Part shown: in pieces, positions 198 to 45,678 of the stretch
How the letters are laid out: each line of letters opens with the position of its first letter
Position numbering within the stretch: the stretch's first letter is position 1
The notes under the pieces: generated by a model
Told to the model about the DNA's origin: nothing
What the model saw: the letters and a program-made list of their open reading frames with translations, nothing else
Database searches by the model: none
Position numbers and translations under genes: made by a program
Assembly (NCBI GenBank): GCA_028279765.1
Contig: JANQND010000007.1
Span: forward strand, 5,851-69,850
Source of the DNA: Candidatus Nanoarchaeia archaeon
Lineage (GTDB): Archaea > Nanobdellota > Nanobdellia > Woesearchaeales > WJIZ01
Length of the DNA: 64,000 nt
Direction of reading: 5' to 3'

Positions 198-1193
198 CTA
201 ATTTTTAGGAACCTTCTTCTTAGATATCTTCACCGGAAGCTTACGCAGTATCGCCCTTGCCTCTTTCAGAGTAAGAAGTTTATTCTTTGCCCCGTGATAC
301 GAGATTACTGACTCGGCATTTGTAGTTGCAAGCCTCATAGCAAAAGAAACATCGTCCTTTAAGATCATACCTGCCAAAAAAGATGAGGCAAAGGCATCAC
401 CTGCCCCAGTTGTTTCTAAAGGAGGTACATGGTTCGTGTGCGCAAAGTAGAGCACATCGTCATAAAAGCAGTATGCCCCTTTTTTTCCGTCAGTGATGAC
501 GACGTAATTCGGGCCCAGGGAATGCAGTTTCCTGCCCAGGTAGGCCATAGAGTCTGCACCTACAATAAGTTCAGCCTCTTCTTTGTTCAGTACAAGAATT
601 TCAGTCATGGAAAGAATTTTTCGCAAATATTGCGTTCCTTTTTCTGCCAGGTAAGAGCTGGGATTAAACGCAATCTTGATGCTGTTTTTTTGAGCAAATG
701 CGGCAAGTGATTCCAGAGTCTTAAAGGCCTTGCCCATCATAGCAGAGAAATAAAACCACTTCGTTTTGAGCAGTTTCTTATTAATGTCCCGGTAAAACAA
801 ATCGTTGTTGACGCCTTTATAGGCAAGGATAGTTCGGTCGTGTTCCAAGCTATCCAGAATTATGGAGTACCCGGTCTCCCCCTTTTTGCGCACCACCAGG
901 CTTGTGTCAACATGTTCCTCTTTGAGCTTAGAGAGTACCATCTCTGAGTTTGATCCCTTTCCCATGCATCCAAGATAAGAAGACTTCAGCCCCAGGCGGG
1001 AGAGAGATACCGCGACATTCGTGCCGCCGCCCCCGGTAGTAAAGTCAATTTCGTCAACCAGTATCTTTGCGCCGGTAGGGTATGCCAGTAAGTCGGTTTC
1101 TCCTTCTTCCTTGAAAATCTTAATGAGTTCAGAATGTTTTGTCTTTGCAAAAGCATCAACCGTAGAGCTCCCCACACAGATTACATCATGCAT
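198..1193 (-). CDS. PfkB/ribokinase-family carbohydrate or nucleoside kinase
   Basis: ORF 198..1349 trimmed to the internal Met (MHDVICVGSSTVDAF), a typical family N-terminus. Contains TTGGGGTNVAVSL and TTGAGDAF motifs. Confidence 0.85.
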   Translation of the reverse strand: MHDVICVGSSTVDAFAKTKHSELIKIFKEEGETDLLAYPTGAKILVDEIDFTTGGGGTNVAVSLSRLGLKSSYLGCMGKGSNSEMVLSKLKEEHVDTSLVVRKKGETGYSIILDSLEHDRTILAYKGVNNDLFYRDINKKLLKTKWFYFSAMMGKAFKTLESLAAFAQKNSIKIAFNPSSYLAEKGTQYLRKILSMTEILVLNKEEAELIVGADSMAYLGRKLHSLGPNYVVITDGKKGAYCFYDDVLYFAHTNHVPPLETTGAGDAFASSFLAGMILKDDVSFAMRLATTNAESVISYHGAKNKLLTLKEARAILRKLPVKISKKKVPKN

Positions 1194-1435
1194 AATCCCC
1201 CTCGGACTATAGAAGTTTATAAAGATTGTTGTATGGGAGACTCTGTTGAAAAGATCATTAGCAGCCAAGGGTAAAATCCAATCTGTGACTAGTATCAAGC
1301 TGACAAGGGGGAAGCCCCAGGCGGGGAATGTCAGCCCTCTAATAAGCAAAAAAGGATTTTACAGCCTGCTAATCAAAGCGCTAGCGTAGATTTTCAACAG
1401 AGTCTGTGTAGGATAAAAAAAGAGGATAGCACAGG

Positions 1436-2473
1436 TCAAAACGAAATACTATCAAGCACATCATGCGCATCAACGCTCGAAAGCAAATAGGATAACCGCT
1501 CTTTATTCTTAACCTTTGAGAGCAGCAGCGCACGTGCATATTCCTCATCCTTCTTGCTTATTCGGGCAAAGGAGTCTGCCGCAAGCAGAGGGTAAGGGTA
1601 GCCAAAGAAGAGCGGATCAGAGGAATACGAAGAGAGTATACGCACGTAGTCCTGCAGTTTTTCCTTGCATGCAGAATCAATTTCAAGCCGGAAAACGTGC
1701 TTTGAAGAAGAATGGAGTCGAACAAAGCACATCTCACCCAAATAATACTCGTTAGACACCTCAAAAACCGGATAATACAACCAACTGGATTTCGGGCCTC
1801 TGTCCTGCAGTGCGCTGCTAAGTCCTGATGCACTGCGCGTAAGCAAGCGGCAGGTTTTGCTCAAGAATCCGACCATCATCTCTTTTTTGCGGGCTGCATC
1901 AAGCAGGTCTTTGAGGACATTATATTCTTCCTTTGTTTTTGCTTTAATGCTTCCATCTATCGCAACCATAAGGCTATCGCTTTCCTCCACTATTCTCTTT
2001 GCATAGAGTAGCTCTGCGCGCCGTCTGATCATCCCTGCAATGTGCTCCATCTCAGTACTATACCTCTCACCATCAAGCGTAATGGTTTGTGAATCAAAAC
2101 CAAGAGGCTCGCTGAAAGGTGCATCACCAAAGAAGGATACAGTATAGTGCAGCACACCGTTATTCTCTTTAGCCTCAATAAAACAAATGAATTCACTGAC
2201 TGACTGAAGTGCTCTTTGCTTTTGTTGGTAGGAAACTGCTGCAATGCGCATAAAATGAAGAGAGAAATTCGGACCGGACAAAATCTGGGCATTGCCTCCA
2301 TCGATCGCAAGCAATGGTTTTTCTTCTCCAAAAAGGCTCAGTTCATGAAAGTTTTTGCTATCAATCCTTATACCGGAAAAGCCTTTGTCAGAAGAAAACG
2401 GAAGAAGGTCTGTTTCTTTATTGATAAACTCATCAAAAGATCGCAGCAATTGTTCTGCATCAGAGGATTTCAT
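1436..2473 (-). CDS. NurA-like nuclease domain protein (tentative)
   Basis: 345-aa ORF with LAIDGGNA and VAIDGSIKA motifs reminiscent of the NurA fold. Weak assignment by eye only. Confidence 0.35.
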   Translation of the reverse strand: MKSSDAEQLLRSFDEFINKETDLLPFSSDKGFSGIRIDSKNFHELSLFGEEKPLLAIDGGNAQILSGPNFSLHFMRIAAVSYQQKQRALQSVSEFICFIEAKENNGVLHYTVSFFGDAPFSEPLGFDSQTITLDGERYSTEMEHIAGMIRRRAELLYAKRIVEESDSLMVAIDGSIKAKTKEEYNVLKDLLDAARKKEMMVGFLSKTCRLLTRSASGLSSALQDRGPKSSWLYYPVFEVSNEYYLGEMCFVRLHSSSKHVFRLEIDSACKEKLQDYVRILSSYSSDPLFFGYPYPLLAADSFARISKKDEEYARALLLSKVKNKERLSYLLSSVDAHDVLDSISF

Positions 2474-2545
2474 AACAATAGAATACCAAAGAGGCTTTTA
2501 TAATTTGTGAGTTGGGTGACAGAGACATAATGAATCCCTAGAGAA

Positions 2546-2630
2546 GCAACAACAATGGCGCAGACGAACTTAGTATCTAAGTTCGAGATTTTCGAAAGAA
2601 AATCGTTCTGCCTGCCGTTATTGTTGTTGC
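2546..2630 (+). repeat. Copy 1 of an ~85-nt palindromic element (small ncRNA, MITE-like element or upstream regulatory element)
   Basis: Termini GCAACAACAA / TTGTTGTTGC pair. Two internal hairpins: CGAACTTAG-TAT-CTAAGTTCG and GATTTTC-GAAA-GAAAATC. Shares the 14-mer AACAACAATGGCGC and AAAATCGTT..CTGCC.TTATTGTT with the copy at 11220-11302. Confidence 0.5.
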
Positions 2631-2665
2631 AAATCTCAAAAACTACAAATAACAATCAAAAATCC

Positions 2666-2677
2666 AAACCTTTAAAT
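2666..2677 (+). promoter_or_regulatory. BRE/TATA-like box (AAACCTTTAAAT) for nadC
   Basis: TTTAAAT lies 26 nt upstream of the ATG at 2703. The same AAACCTTTWWAA motif recurs upstream of topA, the pilus operons and 34121. Confidence 0.45.
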
Positions 2678-2702
2678 TGTTATCCCGGCTCTAAAAAATG
2701 CT

Positions 2703-3641
2703 ATGAATCGCAGGAAAGTTCTCCTCAAAGCGTTCTCACGTGAAAAGCTTCTGACGTTGCACTCACCCTTTTACAGGTCCTGGGTAGAGCGTTTCATCAT
2801 TGATGAAACCAAGGCAGACTTAGGAACAAAGGGAGATATCACTACAAATGCAATTCTCAACGGAAAGAAGCATGCCCGCGCGCAGGTAGTCGGCAGAGAG
2901 CCGGGGATCGCTGCAGGAATCGAAGAGGCATCACATTTATACAGGAAGAATGGCCTGCAGGTAAAACAAATCAAAAAAGACGGGCAGAGAATAAAAAAAG
3001 GGGATATCCTATTAGAGTTGCAGGGAGAGAAAAAAGCCCTCTTTCGTATTGAGCGCTCTGCAGTAGATATTCTGCAGAGGATGTCAGGAATAGCAACCCT
3101 TACTGCTCAGGTTTTCAGATCTATTAATTATAAAGTGCCTATCGCACCTACCAGAAAAACACAGTGGCGCTATCTGGACAAAAAAGCAGTATCCCTGGGT
3201 GGAGGGCTCACACATCGATTAGCGCTCTGGGAGGCAATCCTTATTAAGGATAATCATCTCAAAATGCTCAAAAGCGAAGGGGAAAAAGATCCTATCAGAA
3301 CAGCAATGCAGAGGGCGCATGCCTATAAAAAAAAATCAACATTCATTGAAATTGAAGTAACGACCCTAAGGCAGGCATGCCGTGCTGCGGCAATGTTCAA
3401 AGAGATGAACAGCAGTGTTCCGTCACTCATTATGCTCGATAATATGACGCCAGCGCAGATCAACAAAACGATCAAAGAGCTCAAGAAAAACAAGCTTTAC
3501 GATTATGCCCTTCTGGAAGCATCCGGCGGAATCAATCCGAAAAACATAAAAAAGTATGCCCGGACAAAAGTAGATGTTATCTCCATGGGATACTTGACAC
3601 ACTCTGCCCATGCGCTTGATATAAAGCAATATATTCTGTAA
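2703..3641 (+). CDS. nadC: Nicotinate-nucleotide pyrophosphorylase (quinolinate phosphoribosyltransferase)
   Basis: PTRKTQWRYLDKKAVSLGGGLTHRLALWEAILIKDNH block is typical of the NadC family. Adjacent to nadB. Confidence 0.9.
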   Translation: MNRRKVLLKAFSREKLLTLHSPFYRSWVERFIIDETKADLGTKGDITTNAILNGKKHARAQVVGREPGIAAGIEEASHLYRKNGLQVKQIKKDGQRIKKGDILLELQGEKKALFRIERSAVDILQRMSGIATLTAQVFRSINYKVPIAPTRKTQWRYLDKKAVSLGGGLTHRLALWEAILIKDNHLKMLKSEGEKDPIRTAMQRAHAYKKKSTFIEIEVTTLRQACRAAAMFKEMNSSVPSLIMLDNMTPAQINKTIKELKKNKLYDYALLEASGGINPKNIKKYARTKVDVISMGYLTHSAHALDIKQYIL

Positions 3642-3644
3642 AAA

Positions 3645-5198
3645 ATGAAAACAGATATCGTGATAATAGGGTCAGGAATAGCGGGCCTTACGGCAGCACT
3701 CAAGGCTGTGCGGTTTTCTAAGGTGACGCTGATTGCTAAGGAAAAGCTGCAGGAATCCAATACGTACTATGCCCAGGGAGGTCTTGCAGCAGCAATAGGG
3801 CACGATGACAATATCGAAACCCATATCCAGGACACCTTGCGCGCAGGCGATGGCATCTCAGAGAGAATGCAGGCAAAGATTCTTGCTACGGAATCAGCAA
3901 AGCGTATCCAGGAGTTAAAGGAGCTTGGTGTGCGCTTCGATACAAGAGGGAAAAAGTACAGGCTCAGCAGAGAAGCGGTGCATTCTCGGGCGCGTATCAT
4001 CCATGCATCCGACATGACCGGAAAGGAAATACAACTGCAGTTAGTAAAGAAAGCTCGTGAGAATCAGAATATCACGATTCTTGAGTATCATATGGGATTG
4101 GACTTGATCGTGCATAAAAAGAAATGCGTTGGTGTGCAGGTTCTTGACCTGAAAACAGAAAATACTTTCAGTGTCTTTGCCAAGAAAACAGTTTTAGCGA
4201 CAGGTGGGCTGGGAAGATTATATAGCAAAACAACCAACCCGCACATAGCGACCGGTGATGGGATCGCGATGGCCTTTCGTGCAGGAGCGCAGTTGCAGGA
4301 CATGGAATTCGTTCAGTTTCATCCCACCATGCTGCATAACTCAGAGCCTTCCTTTCTGATATCAGAGACCCTGCGCGGCGAAGGAGGAATCCTCAAGAAT
4401 AAACACGGCAAGGCCTATATGGGAAAGTATCACCGTGATGGCGAGCTTGCTCCTCGTGACGTAGTAGCAAAATTCTCTGTCATTGAAATGCAAAAAACAA
4501 ATGCAAAGCATACCTTTCTGGACATGACGCATATTGAAGAAGCATACCTGAAAAAAAGGTTTCCCCATATCTACAAAGAGTGCCTCAAGTATGGTATTGA
4601 TATGGCAAAACAAATGATCCCGGTGAGTCCTGCTGCGCATTATGTTTGCGGTGGTATAAAAACCGATAGTTTTGGCCAGGCCTCAGTAAAGAATCTCTAT
4701 GCTATCGGCGAGTGTGCCTGCACCGGGTTGCACGGTGCTGATAGGTTAGCATCAAACTCCATGACCGAAGGGCTGGTGTATGGGACGCGCCTTGCAGAGA
4801 AGATCAGAAAAGAAGTGAAAAAAGAAAAAGTGCTGGGAAAGGAAACGGAGGATAGGCTGATTACGTCTGTTCGCAATGGCCGCGTCGAAAAAATAAAGAA
4901 ATTGCTCCAGGGTATTATGTGGCAGCAGGTAGGGATTATTCGCTCGAAAAAAGGCCTTGTTGCTGCATTAGGAAAAATCAAAAAGCTTGAAGCTAAGTTG
5001 AAGAAATTAGTAAAAGAGAGTACCAACAAGGAAGTGCAGGAGTTAAAGAATATGCTTTTGCTGGGCAAGATCATTATTATTAATGCCCTTCGCAGAAAAG
5101 AATCCCGTGGAACGCATTTCATTCTCGATTATCCCGAGCGGCACGATAATATCTGGAAGACCCATTTGGTTATTGATAAAAAATATAGGGGATTGTGA
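3645..5198 (+). CDS. nadB: L-aspartate oxidase
   Basis: N-terminal FAD fold DIVIIGSGIAGLTAAL, plus YAQGG, RGEGG, GGIKTD and LYAIGECACTGLHGADRLASNS motifs. Confidence 0.92.
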   Translation: MKTDIVIIGSGIAGLTAALKAVRFSKVTLIAKEKLQESNTYYAQGGLAAAIGHDDNIETHIQDTLRAGDGISERMQAKILATESAKRIQELKELGVRFDTRGKKYRLSREAVHSRARIIHASDMTGKEIQLQLVKKARENQNITILEYHMGLDLIVHKKKCVGVQVLDLKTENTFSVFAKKTVLATGGLGRLYSKTTNPHIATGDGIAMAFRAGAQLQDMEFVQFHPTMLHNSEPSFLISETLRGEGGILKNKHGKAYMGKYHRDGELAPRDVVAKFSVIEMQKTNAKHTFLDMTHIEEAYLKKRFPHIYKECLKYGIDMAKQMIPVSPAAHYVCGGIKTDSFGQASVKNLYAIGECACTGLHGADRLASNSMTEGLVYGTRLAEKIRKEVKKEKVLGKETEDRLITSVRNGRVEKIKKLLQGIMWQQVGIIRSKKGLVAALGKIKKLEAKLKKLVKESTNKEVQELKNMLLLGKIIIINALRRKESRGTHFILDYPERHDNIWKTHLVIDKKYRGL

Positions 5199-5262
5199 TT
5201 ATTTTTTGGCCTATTATTTTCTATATAGAAAGAAATTAAAGAAAAAAAAGAGATAATTAAAA

Positions 5263-6105
5263 AAATGTGAGAGCAGTAGTCGCGTTTTACTTACTCTCAC
5301 ACCCCATATTTCTGGCGGTTTGGTAGTGGTTGACACCCATAGTAGATACAAAACCAACCTAATTAGCCTTAATCCAACTATAACCGCCATCAATGGAGAA
5401 ATATGTGATAACAGAATGTTATCACAACCGGTGTGCAATCAAAAAGTGTCCTAAGGCAGCAGCGAGGCAAGAATGCTGTGCCTTAGGACTGTTACCGGTG
5501 AGCTTTGCGGTAGTTGCGGTTGCAGTGGCGTCACCGGTAAAGGAGAAGGAAATCTATTGTGAGGCTCGGCAAAGACTAGAGGAAACCTCTTCGGGAAACG
5601 TCGATGCCGAGCGTATAACCAAAAATAAATGTGAGAGCAGTGATAAAGCGTTGAAATTCAATGAATACGTACTCTCACATCCCATGTCCGAGAAACAAAG
5701 ACAACATTCGCAATAAGTTGACTTTGAGCCGATTTTCGGTTAAATCTTGCAGACATGGAAGAAATGAAAAATAAACTCAACGCATACAGGGGAAGGAGTT
5801 AACAAATACCGTATGCACTAAGCTTATACCCTAAAATAAGAGTGTAGGACAAAAGCCCTACACCCCCCTGATAGCATCAGATACATTCTGAGCGAAAACC
5901 GTTGGATGCTATCAGTGTGTTGTTCTGTTCGATCAAAAAAATGATACCGGGAGATCCCGAAGGATAACCAGGTATCATAAAAAAACCCGGGCACCGAATA
6001 ACGGCGTGATTCCCGGGAGGAAGTGGAGTATCAAAGTAAAGGTGCCCGGTAAACAAGAAGATGAAATATGAGGTTTCTAAATTTCCAGTTAAAACCGGGC
6101 ATGTG
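5263..6105. ncRNA. Hairpin-dense ORF-free block A (candidate structured RNA, strand unresolved)
   Basis: Serial helices at 5266-5301, 5314-5388, 5405-5425, 5448-5489 (11 bp), 5492-5540 (10 bp) and 5565-5611. Further helices at 5630-5679, 5782-5816, 5842-5863, 5868-5915 (11 bp), 5941-5978 and 5985-6050. Confidence 0.4.
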
Positions 6106-7188
6106 TTAATCATTGACATCAATGATGACTTTCAGGCTCATCTCACCATTCTCATCGATATGGTTGTAAGCATCAAGATATTGGTCAAAGGTGAATCGGT
6201 CCGTGATTAATGGATCACAAAGAACTTTCCCTTCAGAGATTAGCCCAACCGCATTTTCGTAGTCTTCGTGTTTATACATCAAGGTACCGATCAGGGTCAG
6301 TTCACGATCCTGCAGGCCAGCCAAGTCAACAACAGGTGGCTGGGTAAAACAGCCAACGATAATGATTTCGCTTCCTTTGTTGATATTCGCAACGATACCA
6401 TTAAGTGCAATCTGTACAGCAGAGCATTCGAATGCCAGATCAAAGCCATCATTGCCAAATACGCGTTTAATTGCATCTGGGAGTTTCTCAGTTTTGGGAT
6501 TGCTAACAAAGTCAATCTTACATTCGGTAGCCTTTTCCAGGCGAAAATCGCTGATATCAGTGATTAAAACCTTTTTAGCCCCGTTGGCTTTGGCAACCTG
6601 AGCTACGAGGTTACCAATAGGACCGGCACCAGTTACTAGAACATTTTTTCCTTTTACCTCAGTTGCACGGCTCATAGTATGAACCGCAACCGAGACAGGC
6701 TCAACCAAAGTTCCTTGATCATGGGTGAAATTATCTGGGAAAGTAATTACATTTGACTCATCGGTAACAAAATAATCCTGAGCAACACCTGGCGCCTGGA
6801 ATCCTTCGACTTTCAGTTCATTACAAATATGATAGTCATCTCGTTTGCAAGGAGGACATTCACCACAAACAATTTGTGGTCGGGCAATTGCTTTTTTACC
6901 AAGTATAGCCGCGGGTACACCATCACCAGTCTCAACGATTTCTGCAGAGTATTCATGGCCCTGAATGAGAGGGTACATCTCCGGCGGAACAGTTGCGTGT
7001 GTGCCGTGGTTAACATGGATATCAGAGCCGCATACACCAATTTTTTTGATGTGTAGTAAAACTTGGCCACGGCCAGGTCGCGGCACTTTTTCTTCTGAGA
7101 ATTCAATGTTATCAGAATTCTGTGGTTTTGGGCAAATCATTGTTGCCCGTTTCATTGTTTCTGGTATGTCAGTTATACTCGTGTTCAT
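6106..7188 (-). CDS. Zn-dependent medium-chain alcohol/polyol dehydrogenase (sorbitol/threonine dehydrogenase-like)
   Basis: GVCGSDIHV, GHEYSAEIVETG, CGECPPCKRDDYHIC and VLVTGAGPIGN motifs. Shine-Dalgarno AGAGAGGA lies 5 nt upstream of the ATG. All 10 Arg codons are CGN, unlike the neighbouring genes. Confidence 0.9.
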   Translation of the reverse strand: MNTSITDIPETMKRATMICPKPQNSDNIEFSEEKVPRPGRGQVLLHIKKIGVCGSDIHVNHGTHATVPPEMYPLIQGHEYSAEIVETGDGVPAAILGKKAIARPQIVCGECPPCKRDDYHICNELKVEGFQAPGVAQDYFVTDESNVITFPDNFTHDQGTLVEPVSVAVHTMSRATEVKGKNVLVTGAGPIGNLVAQVAKANGAKKVLITDISDFRLEKATECKIDFVSNPKTEKLPDAIKRVFGNDGFDLAFECSAVQIALNGIVANINKGSEIIIVGCFTQPPVVDLAGLQDRELTLIGTLMYKHEDYENAVGLISEGKVLCDPLITDRFTFDQYLDAYNHIDENGEMSLKVIIDVND

Positions 7189-7283
7189 AATATCCTCTCT
7201 TTCTTAGTTAAAATATTTACTAATTAGTTATAACAATAGAAATTACACCAAAAAAAAACAAAAAACAATTTGATTCAAAATAT

Positions 7284-9449
7284 AATGATAGCCACTAGCA
7301 TCAATAGGGACGCTAGCAGCTATCAAAGAAAAGTGTGGGGATGGAGTATCAATAATACGTACCCAGTTGGACGTGGTGGTCGGGAAATTAGATTCCACGT
7401 CAACCGGGTACAGGGTTCCCTAGAAAATAAAGTCCCGGCCCGGTACTCTTCTCAGGAGACCTAGAGTTAAGCACCGAGCCTTGTGGACCGGTCGAGCAGG
7501 TGGTAGTTGCCAAGGAAGAGTACTGATAAAAATTAAAAGGCACCATGAGCAAAAGCTGCATGGCACCTTGAGAAGTGGGCATCTAAATAAAGACTTGGAC
7601 CCTAATGGTATAGAGTCCAAGCCAGCAAATGGACGCCTGCTAAAAATAGCAGGTGTCTAGGTAACAAAAATTGCAAGCACCAAGCGTAGCCCCACAGCAG
7701 TACCTGGTGCTTGCTAAGGCGAATATATATATATAACTCGCCGCGAAAGCAAGATGAAAGTTATAAAACGTAAGCCCACGGATGTGAGCTTACGCAAGTC
7801 AGGGGAGGACACTTTCTTAATAATAATATAGGAAAGTTCCTCAGTCTTTTCCAGCAAAGTCTGAAACAGACCTGCTGGCAGGGACATAGTAAGGGTGAGC
7901 ACTTAGCATACACCTTGCAGCGATACCAAGTGCTCAGACCGTGTAAAGGACTAAACAAAAGCCGAACCCCCATTGCGCATCACACTATTATGCGTCACGA
8001 CCAGTTCGGCTATCCAGAGAACTAAAATTAAAGCCTACCTGAACAAAAATTGCTCAGGTAAGCCATGTTTCCACATTGTCAGGTGCTCGCCGCAGCACTC
8101 TGACATGCAGAGAAGCATATCAAAATGAATATGCCAGCGGTCCCTGTCGGTCAGGGAATAAAAATGAATGCAGAGAACACGCTGGCGGTTGGTATCAGAT
8201 AGTGACCGTCTTTTAATTTTCCCTTCATCCAACTATCTGATGGGGGCAAGTTTACACTATCCTTTTGAAACAGACTAGCGGGTGGTCCCAGTCAACCTGC
8301 CCGCTAATCTTCAGGAAGTGGAGTATCTAAGTAATGTAAAATGCTGCGCTAAGTTTCCCTAGATGGATTCCTTTCCGGCTTAGCGCACACATCCACGACA
8401 AGAAATTTCAAATGAAGACCTGGCAGATAAATGTGGCGAGATATCTGCCAGGTGGAGGCGACTTGCGATATCTCCGAGATATCGCGCTCTAAATAAATCC
8501 ATATAGTAAACCATTATAATACTCAGCAACGCTGAACTCGCAAGTAGCCCAGCGCTGTGAGGAGTCATATTTCTATGACTCAGTTCTAATGGGGATTCCA
8601 GGATAATTAATTACCGGAAGCTGTCAGCAGAACCAAGTAACCCGTAAGCGATGAGCGCTAACGTACTGACAGCCCCCGGCATTGTTCCGACCGGCATCCG
8701 TGCCAGGCAAAGGCAGGATGTGTCCGCAGTCATCCAACCGGCCAGTAGCATCCATGAAGGAAAGATATCATATGTAATAAAGCGCCCTACAGTCTCTTCA
8801 ATGGTGTACTTTCGGGCGCTGACCTAAGCGTTCGAAGGATCAAAAAGCCGAATTGAAAAAAGTATCGGTACTTGTATGGCTTTGATCCTTCTTAACTCAG
8901 GTCTGAAAAGAAAAGTAATAATCATGAAGTAAAAATCAATATAAGCAAGGCAGACAGCAGAAACGGTCCATACTAATGTTTCAGTGCTGGCTGCCTGACC
9001 TTGCTTCCTCTTTAGGACATTTAAAAAACAGTGCCCTAGCTGCTTAAGGGATTAAAGGATGGTCTCTAAGCTGTGAAAAGAGTTATCGAGATATCTTCGG
9101 TCTTGGGAGTGAAATGAATATATGTACAGCTAAGAGACCAATAAGGGTGTAAATACCCGAACGTGGAATGCATAATATGATAGCAAAACACACCCCATAT
9201 CCGAAGACACAGGGTGTGGGACCTGTTTGCGCATCGCTTTTGTAATGAAAATGTGTAAAGGATACGCATCATCCCCGGGCCCTCCCATTGGTTATTCTTT
9301 TTCTCTCTTCCTTTTGGTCTTCTCCGTAGAAAAAAGGACTGCTATCCGCAGATAGCAGTCCAAGGTAAGCTTTCGATATAAATCGAAAACAACGGTTAAT
9401 AACTAAACTTTAACATCACCTACTAACCGAACGCGATGGTTTAGGTGAT
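7284..9449. ncRNA. Hairpin-dense ORF-free block B (candidate very large structured RNA or RNA array, strand unresolved)
   Basis: About 30 consecutive, mutually unrelated stem-loops with 7-14 bp stems and purine-rich linkers. Coordinates are listed in the findings. No ORF longer than about 70 codons. Confidence 0.45.
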
Positions 9450-9992
9450 TTGCATGGCCGGTGCTGTGGCATAAATCACTTTTGCTACGATGGTATTTTG
9501 AGTAAGAATTTTCTCAGCTCGAAAGACCGCAAAGGTACCACCGGAATCAACAACCAGACTATAAATGGAGTTAACCTTTAATACACCGTCAGTTAATGTA
9601 AAATTCAGCAACGGTGTAGCCCATTGTTGACTTTCCGGCATCGCTGCCAAAACAGAATCATCTTCACTCGTAATTGCCATAACTTCAGCAATTTGCGCGT
9701 TTCCAATTTTTTCGACGTTTTCTACTAACGCGCCAACATCAATTGTCTTCAAATTTTCGATCAAAGTCTGGATACCGTCCTGTGTCGTCTTCTTTATGAC
9801 ACTTTTCCCGGTGGTATCCATCGCATTCGTTACTACGCCAACTTCAGGCACCTTTAGCTTTGCCTCAGGGGAAGTGGCTTCATTTTGTGCTAACATACTT
9901 GTGCCGATTTCATCCTGCGCAGTAGCACCTTGCGACAGCGGCACCAGCCCAATGACAAAGCAAAGGGAGATAAATAATTGTAACTTTTTCAT
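9441..9992 (-). CDS. Secreted protein of unknown function
   Basis: ORF 9441..10100 trimmed to MKKLQLFISLCFVIGLVPLSQGATAQ (Sec-type signal peptide). GGAG lies 6 nt upstream of this ATG. CGA Arg codon. Hairpin 9415-9449 overlaps the stop codon. Confidence 0.6.
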   Translation of the reverse strand: MKKLQLFISLCFVIGLVPLSQGATAQDEIGTSMLAQNEATSPEAKLKVPEVGVVTNAMDTTGKSVIKKTTQDGIQTLIENLKTIDVGALVENVEKIGNAQIAEVMAITSEDDSVLAAMPESQQWATPLLNFTLTDGVLKVNSIYSLVVDSGGTFAVFRAEKILTQNTIVAKVIYATAPAMQIT

Positions 9993-11219
9993 TGTTAACT
10001 CCATTCTGAATGAAATTAATAAATTGATACAACAACACCAAGAGGTGTTGTACGACATGTTTTTCTCACCATCCGTAGAAATAACAACGCTGCTGATCAA
10101 AGATGAAAAAGAGACTATTCAATTGTAATATGGATGATTTCTCTTAATTGTCTTGCCGATGTCTCCCTTCTTAAATTGGAGCGGCTCTTGACAAAGATTT
10201 GTCAAGTGTCGAAAAGAAACATCCTAGCACTTTATTTTGTGAGCGGCTCATCCAGCCTTCGTCTGGTTCATTGACCCTCGAACCTAGGGAAGAAACACAA
10301 ATTGTCAGAAACGCTCTATTGCAGTCTCCGCTGCGTAAGTGTCCGTTTCTTATGGACATGACTAGCAGATTACATGGCATTTTTTTACCACAACATGATT
10401 ACGTAAGTATCCGTTTTAGGAGCATCAGAAGCTCTTTTACGTATCCTCACGGAGGACTAGGGTTGTGTGAGGCACTTTACACACAGACACGCTTTACTGT
10501 AAGAGGGCTACTTCATCATCTCCAAGGAAACTTGCTTTAAGTTCCCTAAAATCATTTTCCGGTTATCGCATATTTATGCAACCACAAAAAGGCAGGTAGG
10601 CTTTCCCGAAGTTTTAAACAACGTTCGGCCCGATCGAAGAATAACCATTGGCATTTCTCCTTTTGTTAAAGTATCAGACTTCATAAAATTACTGAGGTTT
10701 ATGAGGTAAAAAACATTTACATCATAGGCAAATCCTCCCATCAAATAATAGAATAGTACTGAATCCAGGTTCTTTCACATTGAAATTTCCTGAATTCCCG
10801 ATTATAACCAAGATCACTTATAGCAAAAGCTAAAGAAAAAAGCTTTTCTTACCGAAAATATGCATCCAATTCTGCATATTTCTTGCCTTTCCAACCGTAA
10901 TGTGCTATAATTCTCTCAGTGCGGAAAATCTTGGTAGCAATTGGTTTTTAGGTTGTCAGACGTTCAACAATCCAAAGAACAAACTCTTCGTTTCGAGTGT
11001 TTGTTTTTGAAATGTTGCAGCTAAAAGCTGTGGTGTCGAACCGATGGGCTCAACGAAATGGTTAGGTAAAAAACATGAGGTGTGATATAATTTTGGGATA
11101 ACTTTTGAACAATAATGAACATTTGATTACTAACCTAATTGCCTTTTCATTTTTAAACTTTACTCAGAAAAAAAGGCCTAATTTCACGACCGCACAGCAA
11201 CGACAAAAGCGAAATATTT

Positions 11220-11302
11220 GGAACAACAATGGCGCGAACAGAGTGTCTCATTCCGAATTTTTGCTTTACAAAAATCGTTTCGTCTGCCATTATTGTTACA
11301 AC
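11220..11302 (+). repeat. Copy 2 of the ~85-nt palindromic element
   Basis: GGAACAACAATGGCGC ... CGAATTTTTG-CTTTA-CAAAAATCG ... TCTGCCATTATTGTTACAAC. It ends 71 nt before the topA ATG; copy 1 ends 73 nt before the nadC ATG. Confidence 0.5.
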
Positions 11303-11337
11303 TCTATTTCAGATTCTTCTCTATCCATATAAATCAC

Positions 11338-11349
11338 AAACCTTTTTAA
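11338..11349 (+). promoter_or_regulatory. BRE/TATA-like box (AAACCTTTTTAA) for topA
   Basis: Located 24 nt upstream of the ATG at 11373. No Shine-Dalgarno site, consistent with a leaderless transcript. Confidence 0.45.
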
Positions 11350-11372
11350 CCCCTCTTTGACCCGCAAACAGT

Positions 11373-13592
11373 ATGACAGAATTAATTGTCACTGAAAAAC
11401 CTGCCGCTGCAAAGAAAATAGCCGAATCACTAGCAGACGGAAAAGCCATCAAAGAAAACATCAATGGTGTTCCGCACTACCAGCTCTCCCATGGCAATCA
11501 GGACATCATTGTTACCTGCGCAGTAGGCCATTTGTACGGTTTAGAGCAAAAAGAAGGAAAAAAGTGGACCTATCCCCTCTTTGACATAGAGTGGAAGCCG
11601 TCGTACGAAACAAAAAAACAATCCGCCTTCACCAAAAAATACCTTGCAGCAATAAAAAAACTTGCAAAACAGGCAAATGAGTTCACTGTTGCAACAGATT
11701 ATGATATAGAAGGGGAAGTCATCGGATTAAATGTCATCAGATACGCCTGCAAGCAAAAAGATGCCCAGAGGATGAAATTCTCCACTCTCACCAAAGATGA
11801 CCTCATAAAAGCCTACAAAAACAAATCTAAAACCCTGGACTGGGGACAGGCCAATGCAGGGGAAACAAGGCATTTCTTAGACTGGTATAATGGCATCAAT
11901 TATAGCAGGGCGCTCACCGCAGCCATCAAATCCACCGGCGCCTTCAAGATCATGTCCGTGGGAAGAGTGCAGGGCCCGGCATTAAAAACCATCGTGGAGC
12001 GGGAAAAAGAAATCCGGGCCTTCAAGCCTGAGCCCTACTGGCAGATTGAACTCACCGGAAAAATAAAAGAAGGAGCGATACAGGCCTGGCATAGCAAAGA
12101 TAAATTCTGGGATAAAGCTGAAGCAGAGGAAGTTCTTGAAAAAACAAAAGGGGAAAAACAAGGTGAAGTAACAAAAGTATCCACCTCTACTTTCAAGCAG
12201 GCACCTCCCACACCCTTTGATCTTACGACACTGCAAACCGAAGCATACCGCTGCCACAAGATTGCTCCGAAAAATACCTTAGAGATAGCTCAGGAACTCT
12301 ATAGTTCAAGCTATATCTCATATCCAAGAACATCATCACAACAGTATCCTGAAAGTATCGGGTATGCAAAAATTCTTGATAGCCTCAAAAATAATTCCGC
12401 CTACAGCACGCTGGCGCAGGACATTCTCAAGAAAAATCCTCTCAAGCCAAACAACGGTAAAAAAACCGATCCTGCACATCCCGCTATCTATCCGACAGGC
12501 ATCAAGCCAATGAACCTCAACTCCTACGAAGAAAAACTCTACGATCTCATCGTCAGAAGGTTCCTGGCAACTTTCGCAGACTACGCAAAGCGGGAAACCA
12601 ATAAGATAGAAATCAATGTCAAAGGCGAGCCCTTCATCGCAAAAGGAACCAGAACAACAGAAAAAGGCTGGCACACCTATTATGGGCCCTACGTCAATTT
12701 AGAAGAAGAAGAGCTTCCAAAAGTAAAAGAAAAGGACAGCGTAGGCATAAAAAAGATAGCCAAGCATGACAAAGAAACCCAGCCGCCGAAGCGATATACT
12801 CCTGCATCAATCATTAAGGAGTTGGAAAAACGAAACCTGGGAACAAAAGCAACCCGTGCATCCATCATCGAGACTCTCTTCAACAGAGGATATATTGATG
12901 GAAAAGCAATCCAGGCAACAGAGCTGGGCATACGCACAACTGAAACACTGGAAAAGCACTCACCAAAGATCATTGACGAGAAGCTCACCGGCCATTTCGA
13001 AGAGCAAATGGAAGAAATACGAAAAGGGAAAAAAACAGAAGAGGAAGTGCTCAGTGAGGCAAAAGAGGCTCTCACAAAAATATTAGCAGATTTCAAGGAA
13101 AAAGAAAAAGAAATTGGAAAAGAGCTGCACACAGCAAACATCGAAACACGCGATGCCATGACCACTATTGGCAGCTGTCCGAAATGCGCTGAAGGCTCCC
13201 TGCAGATACGAAAAGGAAAATTCGGGCAATTTGTTGCCTGCAACAAATACCCCGACTGTAAGACTACGTTCTCACTGCCAGGCAATGCGCTCATCAAGCC
13301 TGCAAAACAGGTATGTGAGCAATGCAACATCCCTATGGTGCTCACCATCAAAAAAGGAAAGCGGCCAACAGCATTCTGTATCAATAAGGACTGCAAATCA
13401 AAAATAGTAGAAAACGAAAAAGCCCAGCAAGAAGCAAATGAGCTCATCGGAACAGAATGCCCTGATTGTAAAAAAGGAAAAATTGCACTCAGAACATCCA
13501 TCTATGGGTCTTTTCTGGGCTGCGACAAATATCCAAAGTGCAAATACACGAAACAGTTAACACAGCAAAAAGAGGAAACAGAGAGCCAATGA
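11373..13592 (+). CDS. topA: DNA topoisomerase I (type IA) with C-terminal zinc ribbons
   Basis: Toprim segments ELIVTEKP and DYDIEGE, active-site segment YISYPRTSSQ, and repeated CPKC/CxxC zinc-ribbon modules at the C-terminus. Confidence 0.95.
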   Translation: MTELIVTEKPAAAKKIAESLADGKAIKENINGVPHYQLSHGNQDIIVTCAVGHLYGLEQKEGKKWTYPLFDIEWKPSYETKKQSAFTKKYLAAIKKLAKQANEFTVATDYDIEGEVIGLNVIRYACKQKDAQRMKFSTLTKDDLIKAYKNKSKTLDWGQANAGETRHFLDWYNGINYSRALTAAIKSTGAFKIMSVGRVQGPALKTIVEREKEIRAFKPEPYWQIELTGKIKEGAIQAWHSKDKFWDKAEAEEVLEKTKGEKQGEVTKVSTSTFKQAPPTPFDLTTLQTEAYRCHKIAPKNTLEIAQELYSSSYISYPRTSSQQYPESIGYAKILDSLKNNSAYSTLAQDILKKNPLKPNNGKKTDPAHPAIYPTGIKPMNLNSYEEKLYDLIVRRFLATFADYAKRETNKIEINVKGEPFIAKGTRTTEKGWHTYYGPYVNLEEEELPKVKEKDSVGIKKIAKHDKETQPPKRYTPASIIKELEKRNLGTKATRASIIETLFNRGYIDGKAIQATELGIRTTETLEKHSPKIIDEKLTGHFEEQMEEIRKGKKTEEEVLSEAKEALTKILADFKEKEKEIGKELHTANIETRDAMTTIGSCPKCAEGSLQIRKGKFGQFVACNKYPDCKTTFSLPGNALIKPAKQVCEQCNIPMVLTIKKGKRPTAFCINKDCKSKIVENEKAQQEANELIGTECPDCKKGKIALRTSIYGSFLGCDKYPKCKYTKQLTQQKEETESQ

Positions 13593-15343
13593 AGAAAATA
13601 ATTCTTCTTATACTGCTGATCATAGCAGTTCCTGCTGTAGTATCCTTAGAAGGAAAAATGCCGCTCCTTGCAGTAAGGGAGACAAGTGAGGGCTTTAAAG
13701 GAAGCAGGGCAGAGCTATTCCTGGAAGTAAAGGAAGGAACCGGAAGAGTATTCGTAGATACCTTTCCTCTCAGCAAAGTTGACACGCAAATTTCCATGCG
13801 ATTTGCAAAAGAGATTGCCTGTGATTTCCTGGAAAAAAACTGCGATAGCCATGACTTCATTTATACCATCAGGGCAAACGCGCCTATCATTGGAGGTCCA
13901 AGCGCAGGAGCAGCAGCCAGTATTCTTACCGTGTCAGTACTCTCGCAAACACCACTGGACCAAAGAAAAGCAATCACCGGAACGATTAATTCAGGGGGAA
14001 TCATAGGGCCGGTAGGGGGCATAAAAGAAAAAATAGAAGCAGCAGCATCTGACGGGCTCACCCATGTCCTTATCCCGCTTGGAGAGAGCAGCACTGCAAA
14101 TGAATCAGTGAATGAAACCGTCAACCTCACACAATTAGGGGAAGAAAAAGGAATCAGCATAATAGAAGTCGTGGACCTAAATGAAGCCCTAAAAGCATTC
14201 ACCGGAAAAACATTTCAGCAGGACGATCAGCAAATCCAGACCACGAGCTCGTATCAGCAAACCATGAAAAATCTTGCGGTAGAGCTTTGCGATCGAAACC
14301 AAAAGCTGCGATCAAGCATCGTGTTCACCAATGATACTCAGGGCCTCTTTGAGTTATCAACAAATCTCTCCAATAGAGGGAATGACGCCTTTGAAAGCAG
14401 CGAATACTATTCTGCAGCAAGCTTCTGTTTTGGGTCAAACGTTCGCATTAATCAGGCATTTCTCGAATCCAAAAACTTTTCTGCAGAAAAATATCAGGGA
14501 CTATTTGAAGAATTAAAAAGAGAAATAAGGAGCTTTGAAGAACAAATTGAAAGCCTCCCTATCAAAACGATTACTGACCTGGAAAGTTACATGATTGTCA
14601 AGGAGCGGTTGGTTGAAGCACTGCAGTATACCAATAACTCAAACAATAATTCACTGGCATATGCCTATGCATATGGGAATGAAAGGCTCCATTCTGCCTA
14701 TTCCTGGTCAAAATTCTTCAATCACCAGGGAAGGAACCTGGTACTTGATGAGGAAAGCCTCAAAGAATCATGCAGGCAGAAGATCGCAGAAGGAGAAGAG
14801 CGCCTGCAGTATGCCAGCATCTATCTTCCCTTCAGCCTGCAGTCGCCAAGAGAAGAACTTGATCTTGCCTATACAGATTTTAACAGCGAGGATTATGCAG
14901 CCTGCCTCTTCAAGTCAAGTAAGGCAAAAGCCGAGGCAAACATCGTACTCAACACCCTTGGTGTTCAAAATAGCTTCATTCCTATCCTCATTGATACCAA
15001 GCTAACCGCAGCAGGACGGGTAATCCAGAAGGCAGAGCAAAAAGACATGTTTCCTATTCTTGGATACAGCTACTATGAATATGCAAACAGCCTCAAAGAA
15101 TCTGATCAGTTCTCAGCGCTGCTCTATTCAGAGTATGCTCTGGAGCTTTCGAACCTGGATCTCTATTTCAGGGAAAAAGAAAGCCCTGTTCAGTCGATGA
15201 AAATTGATAAAGAGAAAATGATGTTCATTATTCTTGGAATTCTCATAGGGGTTGCAAGTGCAATACCCTTTATCAGGTATTCTCAGAAGCCTAAAGTAAA
15301 GAAGAAGAAAAAGGCAAAGAGAAGAAAACCCAGCAAGGCCTAA
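13589..15343 (+). CDS. Membrane-anchored Lon-like S16 peptidase lacking an AAA+ module
   Basis: ORF trimmed to MKKIILLILLIIAVPAVV, whose ATG overlaps the topA stop (ATGA). Catalytic segments GGPSAGAAASIL and GGIKEKIEAA. C-terminal TM helix followed by a Lys/Arg-rich tail. Confidence 0.8.
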   Translation: MKKIILLILLIIAVPAVVSLEGKMPLLAVRETSEGFKGSRAELFLEVKEGTGRVFVDTFPLSKVDTQISMRFAKEIACDFLEKNCDSHDFIYTIRANAPIIGGPSAGAAASILTVSVLSQTPLDQRKAITGTINSGGIIGPVGGIKEKIEAAASDGLTHVLIPLGESSTANESVNETVNLTQLGEEKGISIIEVVDLNEALKAFTGKTFQQDDQQIQTTSSYQQTMKNLAVELCDRNQKLRSSIVFTNDTQGLFELSTNLSNRGNDAFESSEYYSAASFCFGSNVRINQAFLESKNFSAEKYQGLFEELKREIRSFEEQIESLPIKTITDLESYMIVKERLVEALQYTNNSNNNSLAYAYAYGNERLHSAYSWSKFFNHQGRNLVLDEESLKESCRQKIAEGEERLQYASIYLPFSLQSPREELDLAYTDFNSEDYAACLFKSSKAKAEANIVLNTLGVQNSFIPILIDTKLTAAGRVIQKAEQKDMFPILGYSYYEYANSLKESDQFSALLYSEYALELSNLDLYFREKESPVQSMKIDKEKMMFIILGILIGVASAIPFIRYSQKPKVKKKKKAKRRKPSKA

Positions 15344-15499
15344 GCCCTGCCGGGAAAAAGAGGTGATAGATTCACAACTTAGAGTTCGCACTCCAAGATA
15401 GAAAACCTATTTATTTACTTTAAAGTAAAAACAAATATATAAAGATTTCTGTGTTCAAAAAGACAATTCCTTAAAAGAATGTATAGATGAGAAACCGGC

Positions 15500-16477
15500 A
15501 TGCCAAAGACCATAGCAATAACTACGCTCTGTTGTTTTCTCTTGCTCGCATCTTCCTGCCAGCAGCCTCAGCAAGCCCAGGATCAAATACTAAAGGAGAC
15601 TGAACAGCCTGTCGATATTTTTTTCTGCCCTCATCAAAATTGTGAAGCAGCGCTTGTTGAGCAGATAGAGGAAGCAAGGTCACAAATCCACTGCGCTTTC
15701 TTTGATATTGATTTGGAGATACTCATCAGAGCTCTGGAGAGAAAATCAAAAGAAATAGAAACAAAGATGATCATTGACGCAAATAACAATCACAACCAGC
15801 TCAAAAATCTCAACTACAAAGAAGACGACAACAGCCAATTAATGCATAACAAGTTCTGCATTATTGATAATAAGATAGTTGCCACCGGAAGCTTTAATCC
15901 GACAGAGAATGGGAACACAAAAAATAATAATAACCTTCTCATCATTCATTCCAAACAATTGGCAAGAAATTTCGGGGATGAATTTCAGGAGCTATGGAAT
16001 GAGCGGTTCGGAGAAGGAGACAAAACAAAAATACCTACTATAATCCACAATGGAAAAGCCGTTGAAAATTATTTCTGCCCGGAAGATCAGTGCAGTGAGC
16101 AGCTCATTGCAGCTATCCTCAACGCAAAACAATCCATCTACTTCATGACTTTCAGCTTCACTGATCAGAGGGTAGCAGATGCCATTCTCATGAGTAAAGC
16201 CCCGGATATACGAGGAGTTTTTGAAAAATTTCAGGCAGGCGGCAGATACTCACAGTATCAGCGATTGAAAGACTTCGGGTTAAGCATCTCCCTTGACAAC
16301 AATTCCAGAATGATGCACCACAAAGTATTCATCATCGACAATCAAACAGTAATCACCGGATCATACAATCCCACATCAGCAGGAACAAGAAAAAACGACG
16401 AGAACATGCTGATTATACATAATAAAAGGATCGCGAAAGAATTTTTGAATGAGTTTGAGAGAGTAAGCAGCCGGTAA
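15500..16477 (+). CDS. Secreted/lipid-anchored phospholipase D-family protein (two HKD motifs)
   Basis: HNKFCIIDNKIVATGSFNPT and HHKVFIIDNQTVITGSYNPT motifs. N-terminal signal with LLLASSC lipobox-like cysteine. Confidence 0.85.
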   Translation: MPKTIAITTLCCFLLLASSCQQPQQAQDQILKETEQPVDIFFCPHQNCEAALVEQIEEARSQIHCAFFDIDLEILIRALERKSKEIETKMIIDANNNHNQLKNLNYKEDDNSQLMHNKFCIIDNKIVATGSFNPTENGNTKNNNNLLIIHSKQLARNFGDEFQELWNERFGEGDKTKIPTIIHNGKAVENYFCPEDQCSEQLIAAILNAKQSIYFMTFSFTDQRVADAILMSKAPDIRGVFEKFQAGGRYSQYQRLKDFGLSISLDNNSRMMHHKVFIIDNQTVITGSYNPTSAGTRKNDENMLIIHNKRIAKEFLNEFERVSSR

Positions 16478-41002: not shown

Positions 41003-41122
41003 GGGGGCGTAGTATAATCTGGCTAGTACAGCCGGCTCCAGATGTTGGAGCGTTGAGGCAAGAGCCGATGATAAGCACGCAGGCAAAACCGGCCGATCGG
41101 GGTTCAAATCCCTGCGTCCCCA
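41003..41122 (+). tRNA. tRNA-Trp (CCA) with a 46-nt intron at the canonical 37/38 position
   Basis: Acceptor stem GGGGGCG/CGTCCCC, D-arm GTAT..GTAC, anticodon stem GCCGG/CCGGC with loop CTCCAG/A, and T-arm CGGGG-TTCAAAT-CCCTG. Intron spans 41042-41087. No encoded CCA. Confidence 0.85.
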
Positions 41123-44119: not shown

Positions 44120-44200
44120 TTTTCGATATCCCCCCTAGTGAGAGAGAAAGGGTGTTTATATAATAATAGTAAAGAAAAAGAGAAAAAAAAAGGTAAGAGC

Positions 44201-45499: not shown

Positions 45500-45678
45500 T
45501 TTTATTGAACCCCCATGGTTGTTGTTAACATCCTTATTTTATTTTTTTTATATGAGAGATTATGAAATCTCTAGATAGGTTTTAATCTCCCTATGTAATC
45601 TTACCCTCATATTTAAAGTTTTCGTTTATTTAGTATACAAGAGTAGTTAAAAAAGAGGACTATCTTGTAGTAAATAAA

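Follow-up and report, generated by a model that had tools for sequence, protein, structure and literature searches.

What is a stretch of about six kilobases with hardly any genes doing between nadB and topA in the chromosome of a DPANN archaeon? The question is raised by a 64,000-nt stretch of a Candidatus Nanoarchaeia archaeon (GenBank assembly GCA_028279765.1, contig JANQND010000007.1, forward-strand positions 5,851 to 69,850; hereafter the window), in which the interval from the nadB stop codon to the topA start codon (5199–11372) is by far the longest gap. Only 26.5% of this interval is coding, compared with 90.7% of the window outside it (open reading frames (ORFs) of at least 150 aa). 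The original prediction, made from the DNA letters without database searches, had thus correctly described an ORF-poor stretch in nearly fully coding surroundings. DPANN genomes are small and tightly packed, so the retention of 4.5 kb of non-coding DNA is unexpected. Here, we show that the ORF-poor stretch is a lineage-specific insertion of ~6.13 kb (~5199–11335), referred to below as the island, and we consider it probable that this is a genuine foreign insertion of ~6.1 kb at a recurrent variable site, whose hairpin blocks correspond to minus-strand structured RNA made of small RNA (sRNA)-like and terminator-like units.

The nadB–topA junction and its insertion

The gene order PfkB-NurA-(NadA)-NadC-NadB-TopA-Lon is common to the window and to three relatives (L030, L031 and L032), in which the nadB-to-topA spacer measures about 40 nt and holds a conserved promoter, AATTCCAAAACTTTTTATA. 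The same arrangement recurs in L035, which provides the nearest empty site (TGATTACAAAGCTTTTTATAT), and in one JGI contig; in the slightly more distant L037, L038 and L039, NadX (aspartate dehydrogenase) replaces NadB and likewise adjoins topA. DNA colinearity with the relatives covers positions 258–5188 and 11379–16407 of the window, and no DNA match to the contigs of the empty-site relatives was obtained for 5199–11370. The stretch is absent from the orthologous site of relatives, as expected from the horizontal acquisition that had been proposed for it. The window TopA shares 65–74% identity with TopA from metagenome-assembled genomes (MAGs) of Woesearchaeota, which identifies the host as a DPANN archaeon of a Woesearchaeota-type order. 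The features of the locus are as follows.

3645–5198, plus strand: host nadB (L-aspartate oxidase), left flank; TGA stop at 5196–5198; Pfam FAD_binding_2 and Succ_DH_flav_C; colinear with nadB of L030, L031 and L032
5193–5200, no strand: left half of an 8-bp inverted repeat, TTGTGATT, overlapping the last codon and the stop of nadB
5199–11335, no strand: insertion; junction uncertainty ~5 nt (left 5199–5202, right 11331–11336)
5260–6105, minus strand: hairpin block B, downstream of the dehydrogenase gene; U-tailed hairpins at 5986–6017 (U7 at 5979–5985), 5628–5681 and 5266–5301 (U7)
6018–6039, minus strand: motif UUACUUUGAUACUCCACUUCCU, single-stranded, followed by a hairpin and U tail (sRNA-like module); paralogues at 8313–8334 and, core only, at 7342–7350
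6106–7188, minus strand: Zn-dependent medium-chain dehydrogenase, threonine/polyol-dehydrogenase-like (ADH); Pfam ADH_N and ADH_zinc_N
7189–7285, minus strand: AT-rich leader or putative promoter of ADH, the promoter role being suggested by the sequence; AGAGAGGA 5 nt before the ATG
7286–9440, minus strand: hairpin block A, ~30 stem-loops, for example 7286–7325, 7592–7623, 8032–8064, 9189–9218 and 9336–9361
9441–9992, minus strand: ORF2, 183-aa orphan; signal-peptide-like N-terminus MKKLQLFISLCFVIGLVPLSQGATAQ; GGAG 6 nt before the ATG
9993–11335, no strand: AT-rich non-coding tail of the insertion, 1.3 kb; no ORF with a family match
11332–11339, no strand: right half of the inverted repeat, AATCACAA, a perfect match to its partner TTGTGATT
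11337–11372, plus strand: host topA promoter and spacer, retained; CAAACCTTTTTAAC... (11337–11350), homologous to AATTCCAAAACTTTTTATA of relatives
11373–13592, plus strand: host topA (type IA topoisomerase), right flank; identified by Pfam

The left end of the stretch had been placed correctly, next to the nadB stop, whereas the right end lies at ~11331–11336, ~175 nt beyond the 11160 that had been suggested. A GGCCTA-containing similarity (5208–5213 and 11175–11180), offered as a trace of the boundaries, is away from the right junction and is not significant. The TTGTGATT/AATCACAA pair is the sole 8-mer inverted match between the two junction regions, and its halves, if joined, form a 16-bp palindrome; it may represent a target palindrome, short terminal repeats or chance. 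No integrase, transposase or recombinase domain was detected by Pfam in the island ORFs or in the six frames of 7189–9440 and 9993–11372, no tRNA or tmRNA was found in the island and no direct repeat flanks the junctions.

The same pattern could in principle arise from an assembly chimera, a possibility that the original prediction had kept beside horizontal acquisition, with foreign reads spliced into the contig and nadB lying beside topA in the true genome. The contig derives from a metagenome, ADH is bacterial and both junctions sit in AT-rich, low-complexity sequence, all of which would suit an artefact. However, both flanks resume the synteny of the same relatives and the host sequence is complete at both junctions, with the nadB stop and the topA promoter intact and zero host bases lost, so that a chimera would need two exact joins. 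In addition, the GC content matches that of the host, the island has nothing except ADH in common with the nearest bacterial contig, and genuine inserts occupy this junction in other Woesearchaeota. On these grounds, we rate misassembly as very unlikely.

To place the junction in a broader context, 88 Woesearchaeota topA loci were surveyed, 27 of which have nadB or nadX upstream on the same strand. The empty junction by which related genomes were expected to reveal an insertion was indeed found there: the spacer measures 46–110 nt in 18 of the 27 loci and 206 nt in another one. Inserts of 0.5–6.2 kb occupy the junction in 6 of the 27 (L036, L041, L054, L063, L064 and L065), while L080 has nadC only, ~8.1 kb upstream of topA. 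The L036 insert comprises 6.2 kb and seven genes (617–6805), fits precisely into the gap from the nadB stop codon to the AATTCCAAAC promoter and encodes a Cys/Met pyridoxal-phosphate enzyme, two radical-SAM proteins, a TrmB regulator and three unknowns; it is nearly the same size as the window island and likewise mostly antisense to its flanks. The remaining inserts (L041:2983–3495, L054:5754–6706, L063:6622–10000, L064:8799–10000 and L065:4715–9522; 0.5–4.8 kb) encode a cupredoxin-like protein, a dihydrouridine synthase, a ThiF-like protein and orphans. None of the six resembles the window island, and all six are densely coding, while the window island alone is mostly non-coding. The presence of unrelated inserts at one junction in six relatives points to a recurrent variable site, or hot spot, for lineage-specific DNA.

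The loci also differ in the upstream gene itself. NadX (PF01958) stands in the place of nadB at the same operon position in L037 (4621–5409), L038 (9028–9813), L039 (9164–9952) and ~15 more loci, which is a non-orthologous displacement within the NAD operon.

Hairpin blocks and strand asymmetry

Apart from its two ORFs, the remaining ~4.5 kb of the island contains no credible ORF in any frame, nor does one appear when any single stop codon is recoded, and six-frame Pfam scans of 7189–9440 and 9993–11372 were empty (5199–6105 was translated only), in agreement with the original description of this DNA as devoid of credible ORFs. It had also been described as dominated by stem-loops, which is true of two blocks, 5260–6105 and 7189–9440. 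Using a fold z that compares the folding energy with that of dinucleotide-preserving shuffles, the minus strand of 7281–8270 reached −402.7 kcal/mol, where shuffles averaged −283.8 ± 6.1 (z = −19.6), with z = −7.7 for 8271–9260 and z = −9.9 for 5260–6105; elsewhere in the window, the background has a mean of −0.2 and a standard deviation of 1.2. The tail (9993–11335), by contrast, is not hairpin-dominated, as its z is −3.7 over 990 nt and most of its 150-nt windows are near 0. The cargo is thus mostly non-coding and rich in hairpins, as had been claimed.

The architecture is a near-continuous string of ~45 local stem-loops spaced 70–150 nt apart, many with bulge-free stems of 10–18 bp. Some are terminator-like units, with GC-rich stems of 9–17 bp and loops of 3–6 nt followed by U tracts. 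The hairpins are almost all distinct in sequence, and UUCG and GNRA-type loops are present. In a strand-neutral search, 14 bulge-free hairpins of at least 10 pairs were found in 7189–9440, or 6.2 per kb against 0.3–0.8 per kb elsewhere. The densest 2 kb contain 13 such hairpins; the comparator loci (bacterial and Woesearchaeota, 1.84 Mb) never exceed 8, and those 8 are weak and AT-rich. Allowing long-range pairing improved the energy by only ~4% (−805 versus −775 kcal/mol), which indicates a string of local hairpins rather than a multi-junction fold.

This last result bears on the possibility that the blocks are one or two very large structured non-coding RNAs (ncRNAs) of a new class (~2.1 kb and ~0.85 kb), of the scale of GOLLD, ROOL or OLE, carried as island cargo. 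The extreme z with its strand bias, the UUCG and GNRA-type loops, the intergenic position in a streamlined genome and the lack of matches to known families are what such RNAs would be expected to show, but the small gain from long-range pairs, the many terminator-like U tails and the lack of homologues, and hence of covariation, count against it. We regard a giant ncRNA as a distinctly unlikely explanation; a cluster of sRNA-like or terminator-like units seems most likely to us, and more so than one globular RNA.

Several properties distinguish the two strands. The plus strand also folds well below its shuffles (z of −8.6 for 7281–8270, −6.0 for 8271–9260 and −8.8 for 5260–6105), and in each of these segments the minus strand is the more stable of the two; for 7280–8280, the minimum free energies are −402.7 (minus) and −352.8 kcal/mol (plus). 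Among the transition-type non-Watson–Crick positions of the stems, 22 read as G·U and 7 as A·C on the minus strand (binomial p 0.004 against 1:1). Terminator-like sites, defined as a GC-rich stem plus a U tract, are located on the minus strand in 11 of 12 cases, where 5.7 ± 2.6 would be expected on both strands together. Clean examples follow ORF2 (9336–9361, U6) and ADH (5986–6017, U7), and a further one marks the end of the insert beside nadB (5266–5301, U7). The strand asymmetry, the excess of G·U and the U-tailed hairpins point to minus-strand RNA.

There is also limited internal repetition. A 22-nt single-stranded motif, UUACUUNGAUACUCCACUUCCU, together with its hairpin, is present twice (6018–6039 and 8313–8334, 95% identity), and its core, GAUACUCCA, has a third copy at 7342–7350, again directly before a U-tailed hairpin. 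Of the four window matches to TGGAGTATC, three fall within the island on one strand, where 0.41 would be expected; the motif GATACTCCA is not enriched in the 1.84 Mb of comparator loci. The hairpins at 5266–5301 and 5628–5681 are paralogues with similar stems and flanks and different loops.

The explanation that we favour is that foreign DNA entered the ~20–40-nt spacer between the NAD-biosynthesis operon, at nadB, and topA. All recognizable cargo reads from the minus strand, in the opposite sense to the host genes. It comprises ORF2, an orphan of secreted type, with its own hairpin and U6 terminator; a hairpin block of ~2.1 kb, built almost entirely from long stem-loops; ADH; and a second hairpin block of ~0.85 kb, which closes with a strong U-tailed hairpin beside nadB. 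The two blocks would be transcribed from the minus strand as structured RNA composed of units, in each of which a stable hairpin with a U tail probably follows a single-stranded CU-rich segment; three units share the core GAUACUCCA. We infer this transcription and unit structure, along with any regulatory or protective role of the blocks; the insertion, the empty sites, the variable site, the bacterial affinity of ADH, the fold excess and its strand bias are direct results.

Some results weigh against this proposal. Corrected for the high U content of the minus strand, the G·U bias is moderate (p ~0.03), promoter-like sites are not enriched in the island, and its composition, detailed below, does not clearly mark it as foreign. 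Perfect stems of 10–18 bp, here reaching z = −19.6, are unusual in functional structured RNAs and more typical of terminators, REP/MITE palindromes and DNA inverted repeats. Lastly, the collections searched yielded no relative of the non-coding blocks, any function of which is therefore putative.

The palindromic nature of the stems leads to a competing explanation, namely that the blocks are a pile-up of non-autonomous palindromic DNA (REP/BIME, MITE or PATE-like) brought from the donor, without an RNA function here. The stems are very long and near-perfect, a length and perfection that fit such DNA as well as they fit terminators; both strands fold far below shuffles, a fold excess this large is typical of inverted-repeat DNA, and a few short internal paralogies exist. 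Against this, nearly all hairpins are different, the G·U and z-score strand bias argues for a constraint at the RNA level, and no further hairpin copy was found elsewhere in the 64-kb window. Three exact motifs were also scanned, one against GTDB genomes and viral contigs, one against viral contigs only, and the third against GTDB genomes, viral contigs and, as a 19-mer, JGI metagenomes. All three were absent from the GTDB and viral collections scanned, and JGI returned two chance 19-mer matches with no further similarity. A pile-up of palindromes is in our view unlikely but not negligible.

Other searches for known families were equally negative. No Rfam match was obtained for the island at the gathering threshold or at E ≤ 10, the best scoring ~20 bits with E ≥ 1, and covariance models at both thresholds excluded an rRNA operon, group I and II introns, riboswitches, ribozymes and the large ncRNAs on record, such as GOLLD, ROOL, OLE and HEARO. 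A CRISPR array or tandem repeats were rejected, as the island has no direct-repeat family and no tandem array, and so were the ncRNA arrays of UG27 reverse transcriptases, which need a reverse-transcriptase gene that is absent here. Searches with tblastx of all non-coding pieces against the 1.84 Mb of loci gave no match, blastn revealed no similarity of the island to plasmids and phages, and spurious ORFs from the non-coding blocks were absent from a collection of 15 G proteins. Literature searches retrieved no description of comparable hairpin arrays.

Integron cassettes and clusters of attC sites lacking integron-integrases (CALINs) are present in Nanoarchaeota MAGs (PMC9668308) and are the one vehicle documented for moving genes across the archaeal–bacterial divide. 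The island might be a cassette array of this type, its hairpins being attC sites, given that cassettes share one orientation, frequently contain an orphan gene or no ORF and have hairpins at their borders. A regular expression for the RYYYAAC and GTTRRRY cores returned two spans, in neither of which are the cores paired, and no hairpin with paired RYYYAAC...GTTRRRY cores was found with it. There is no integrase, many hairpins end in U tails, and they recur every 70–150 nt rather than once per cassette of 0.5–1 kb. We consider a CALIN extremely improbable.

The non-coding DNA might otherwise be the decayed remains of transferred genes, pseudogenes heading to deletion. This is plausible for 9993–11335, an unstructured, AT-rich segment whose minus strand shows short fragments of protein-like reading frame. 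Nevertheless, neither the six-frame Pfam scans nor tblastx recovered a trace of a gene, and decay does not create dense strand-biased hairpins, so that pseudogenes are a highly improbable source of the non-coding DNA. The tail shows no similarity to any comparator locus.

A bolder version of the structured-RNA reading is that the island carries a new type of RNA locus, with kilobase-scale arrays of unique, long, U-tailed hairpins that are moved horizontally along with a few genes. Such arrays could act as a multi-sRNA precursor or as a decoy or protective RNA rich in double-stranded segments, and a streamlined DPANN genome would retain them for the sake of the RNA, the cargo under selection. 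We put this forward as speculative and unlikely at present.

Genes, composition and surroundings of the island

The two minus-strand ORFs that had been predicted, 6106–7188 and 9441–9992, exist, and the first, which had been called a dehydrogenase, is a Zn-dependent enzyme of the medium-chain dehydrogenase/reductase (MDR) family. It scores under every NCBIfam equivalog cut-off, and its assignment as an L-threonine 3-dehydrogenase (Tdh) equivalog was rejected, at 217.6 bits against a cut-off of 380. The top PDB match is a threonine dehydrogenase (E 5e-51), and the nearest solved structures are threonine and polyol dehydrogenases; no label narrower than MDR polyol/threonine-dehydrogenase-like enzyme is warranted.

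Among GTDB representative genomes, all 28 loci with relatives of ADH are bacterial, belonging to Planctomycetota, Bacteroidota, Fidelibacterota, Verrucomicrobiota and other phyla. The closest relative, with 75% identity, is encoded by a Sedimentisphaerales MAG (L001), and the runner-up shares ~60%. At the DNA level, the 73% identity to L001 is confined to the gene, the neighbourhood of the homologue in L001 is ordinary dense coding DNA and no non-coding context is common to L001 and the island. A bacterial descent of ADH is well supported by these sequence comparisons. The idea of a bacterial-type cassette is therefore borne out for ADH only; ORF2, being an orphan, is neutral on this point.

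ORF2 has no homologue in 5.8 G clusters (word-indexed search) and no convincing one in 1.84 G representatives (full HMMER search), where one marginal match appeared (E 7e-4). It belongs to no Pfam, NCBIfam or PHROG family, its AlphaFold2 model is unusable (mean predicted local distance difference test score of 34), and its region is unstructured at the fold level, like coding DNA. About 200 nt upstream of ORF2 lies a perfect, operator-like palindrome, CTTGACAAA-GA-TTTGTCAAG (10187–10206), with no regulator gene nearby.

The original prediction called the stretch compositionally foreign, and here the evidence is weak. The GC content of the island equals that of the host flanks, and its tetranucleotide correlation to the window (0.68–0.74) is not the lowest, as two other parts of the window have lower values. 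Of the 43 ORFs, ORF2 has the most deviant synonymous codon usage (z −3.7), the host nadB comes second and ADH is only 8th (z −1.6). All 10 Arg codons of ADH are CGN, and so is the single Arg codon of ORF2, exactly as had been noted; for one gene, 10 of 10 has P = 2.7e-4, which is unusual and not unique. The accompanying claim that the rest of the window uses mostly AGA/AGG is overstated, since host Arg codons divide into 349 AGR and 273 CGN (56% and 44%) and both nadB and topA exceed 50% CGN. Bacterial-style ribosome-binding sites do not discriminate either, with a Shine–Dalgarno (SD)-like 4-mer upstream of 12 of 41 host ORFs. A composition so close to that of the host means that the transfer is old and has ameliorated, or that the donor resembled the host in composition. 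The original prediction was largely right in what it observed and half right in how it interpreted it, its arguments from composition, Arg codons and ribosome-binding sites being the weak ones.

Two very large ORFs, 24075–27839 (plus strand, 1254 aa) and 36616–39345 (minus strand, 909 aa), are compositionally more atypical than the island: they contain only 2.6% Lys and have the lowest tetranucleotide correlation to the rest of the window (0.53–0.56). At 42035–49125 (minus strand), three consecutive genes are preceded by GGGGG-type SD sequences, with a CGN share of Arg codons of 0.68–0.76 in two and 0.50 in the third; this may be another block of distinct origin. The sole match of the window at the Rfam gathering threshold is a tRNA at 41003–41122 (plus strand), whose 120 nt exceed the length of an uninterrupted tRNA; it is presumably intron-containing, which fits an archaeal host.

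Many GTDB records titled ‘uncultured Methanosarcinales archaeon’ (L054, L059–L062, L067, L071, L075–L077 and others) encode a TopA that is 57–65% identical to Woesearchaeota TopA, and several of them share the NadX–TopA context. Their titles look taxonomically unreliable.

Significance and comparison with known systems

With many empty sites and differing inserts elsewhere, the locus is a clear-cut example of genes moving into a Woesearchaeon, and the nadB/nadX–topA junction is a useful place to study DNA uptake by these archaea. Should the hairpin arrays turn out to be expressed and recurrent, they would represent large RNA cargo of a new kind and would raise the question of what role bacterial-style hairpins and U tracts play in an archaeal cell. 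If they are not recurrent, the island would be an ordinary horizontal transfer with unusual junk.

Among known RNA systems, the units are closest to Rho-independent terminators and the 3′ modules of Hfq-type sRNAs, with which they share GC-rich stems and U tracts, three of them preceded by a common CU-rich motif. Unlike those modules, the island hairpins stand wall to wall over 3 kb, many lack a U tail and promoters are not evident. In archaea, hairpins are not known to be needed for termination. The blocks resemble GOLLD, ROOL and OLE in being long, ORF-free and highly structured regions in an island-like context; they differ from these in having no covariance-model match at E up to 10 and no homologues, and in being built of serial local hairpins rather than multi-way junctions. 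With REP/BIME, MITE and PATE elements, they share dense near-perfect inverted repeats that fold on both strands, but the island units do not repeat each other, and neither the window nor the scanned collections yielded further copies.

As a genomic element, the island is comparable with flexible genomic islands, or hot spots between core genes, in that it occurs in one lineage only, at a junction with varied cargo, and carries one gene of foreign affinity. It departs from them in having no integrase, transposase, tRNA target or direct repeats, in a cargo that is three-quarters non-coding and in a composition that is not clearly atypical. Its bacterial-type Zn-dependent dehydrogenase inside an archaeal chromosome segment recalls the transfer of metabolic genes from bacteria to Woesearchaeota and other DPANN archaea, to which the island adds kilobases of structured non-coding DNA and hairpin/U-tract terminators; to our knowledge, structured non-coding blocks and bacterial-style terminators have not been described for such transfers. 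The horizontal transfer itself is ordinary, whereas the ~3 kb of strand-biased, hairpin-saturated cargo is strange and, so far, a singleton.

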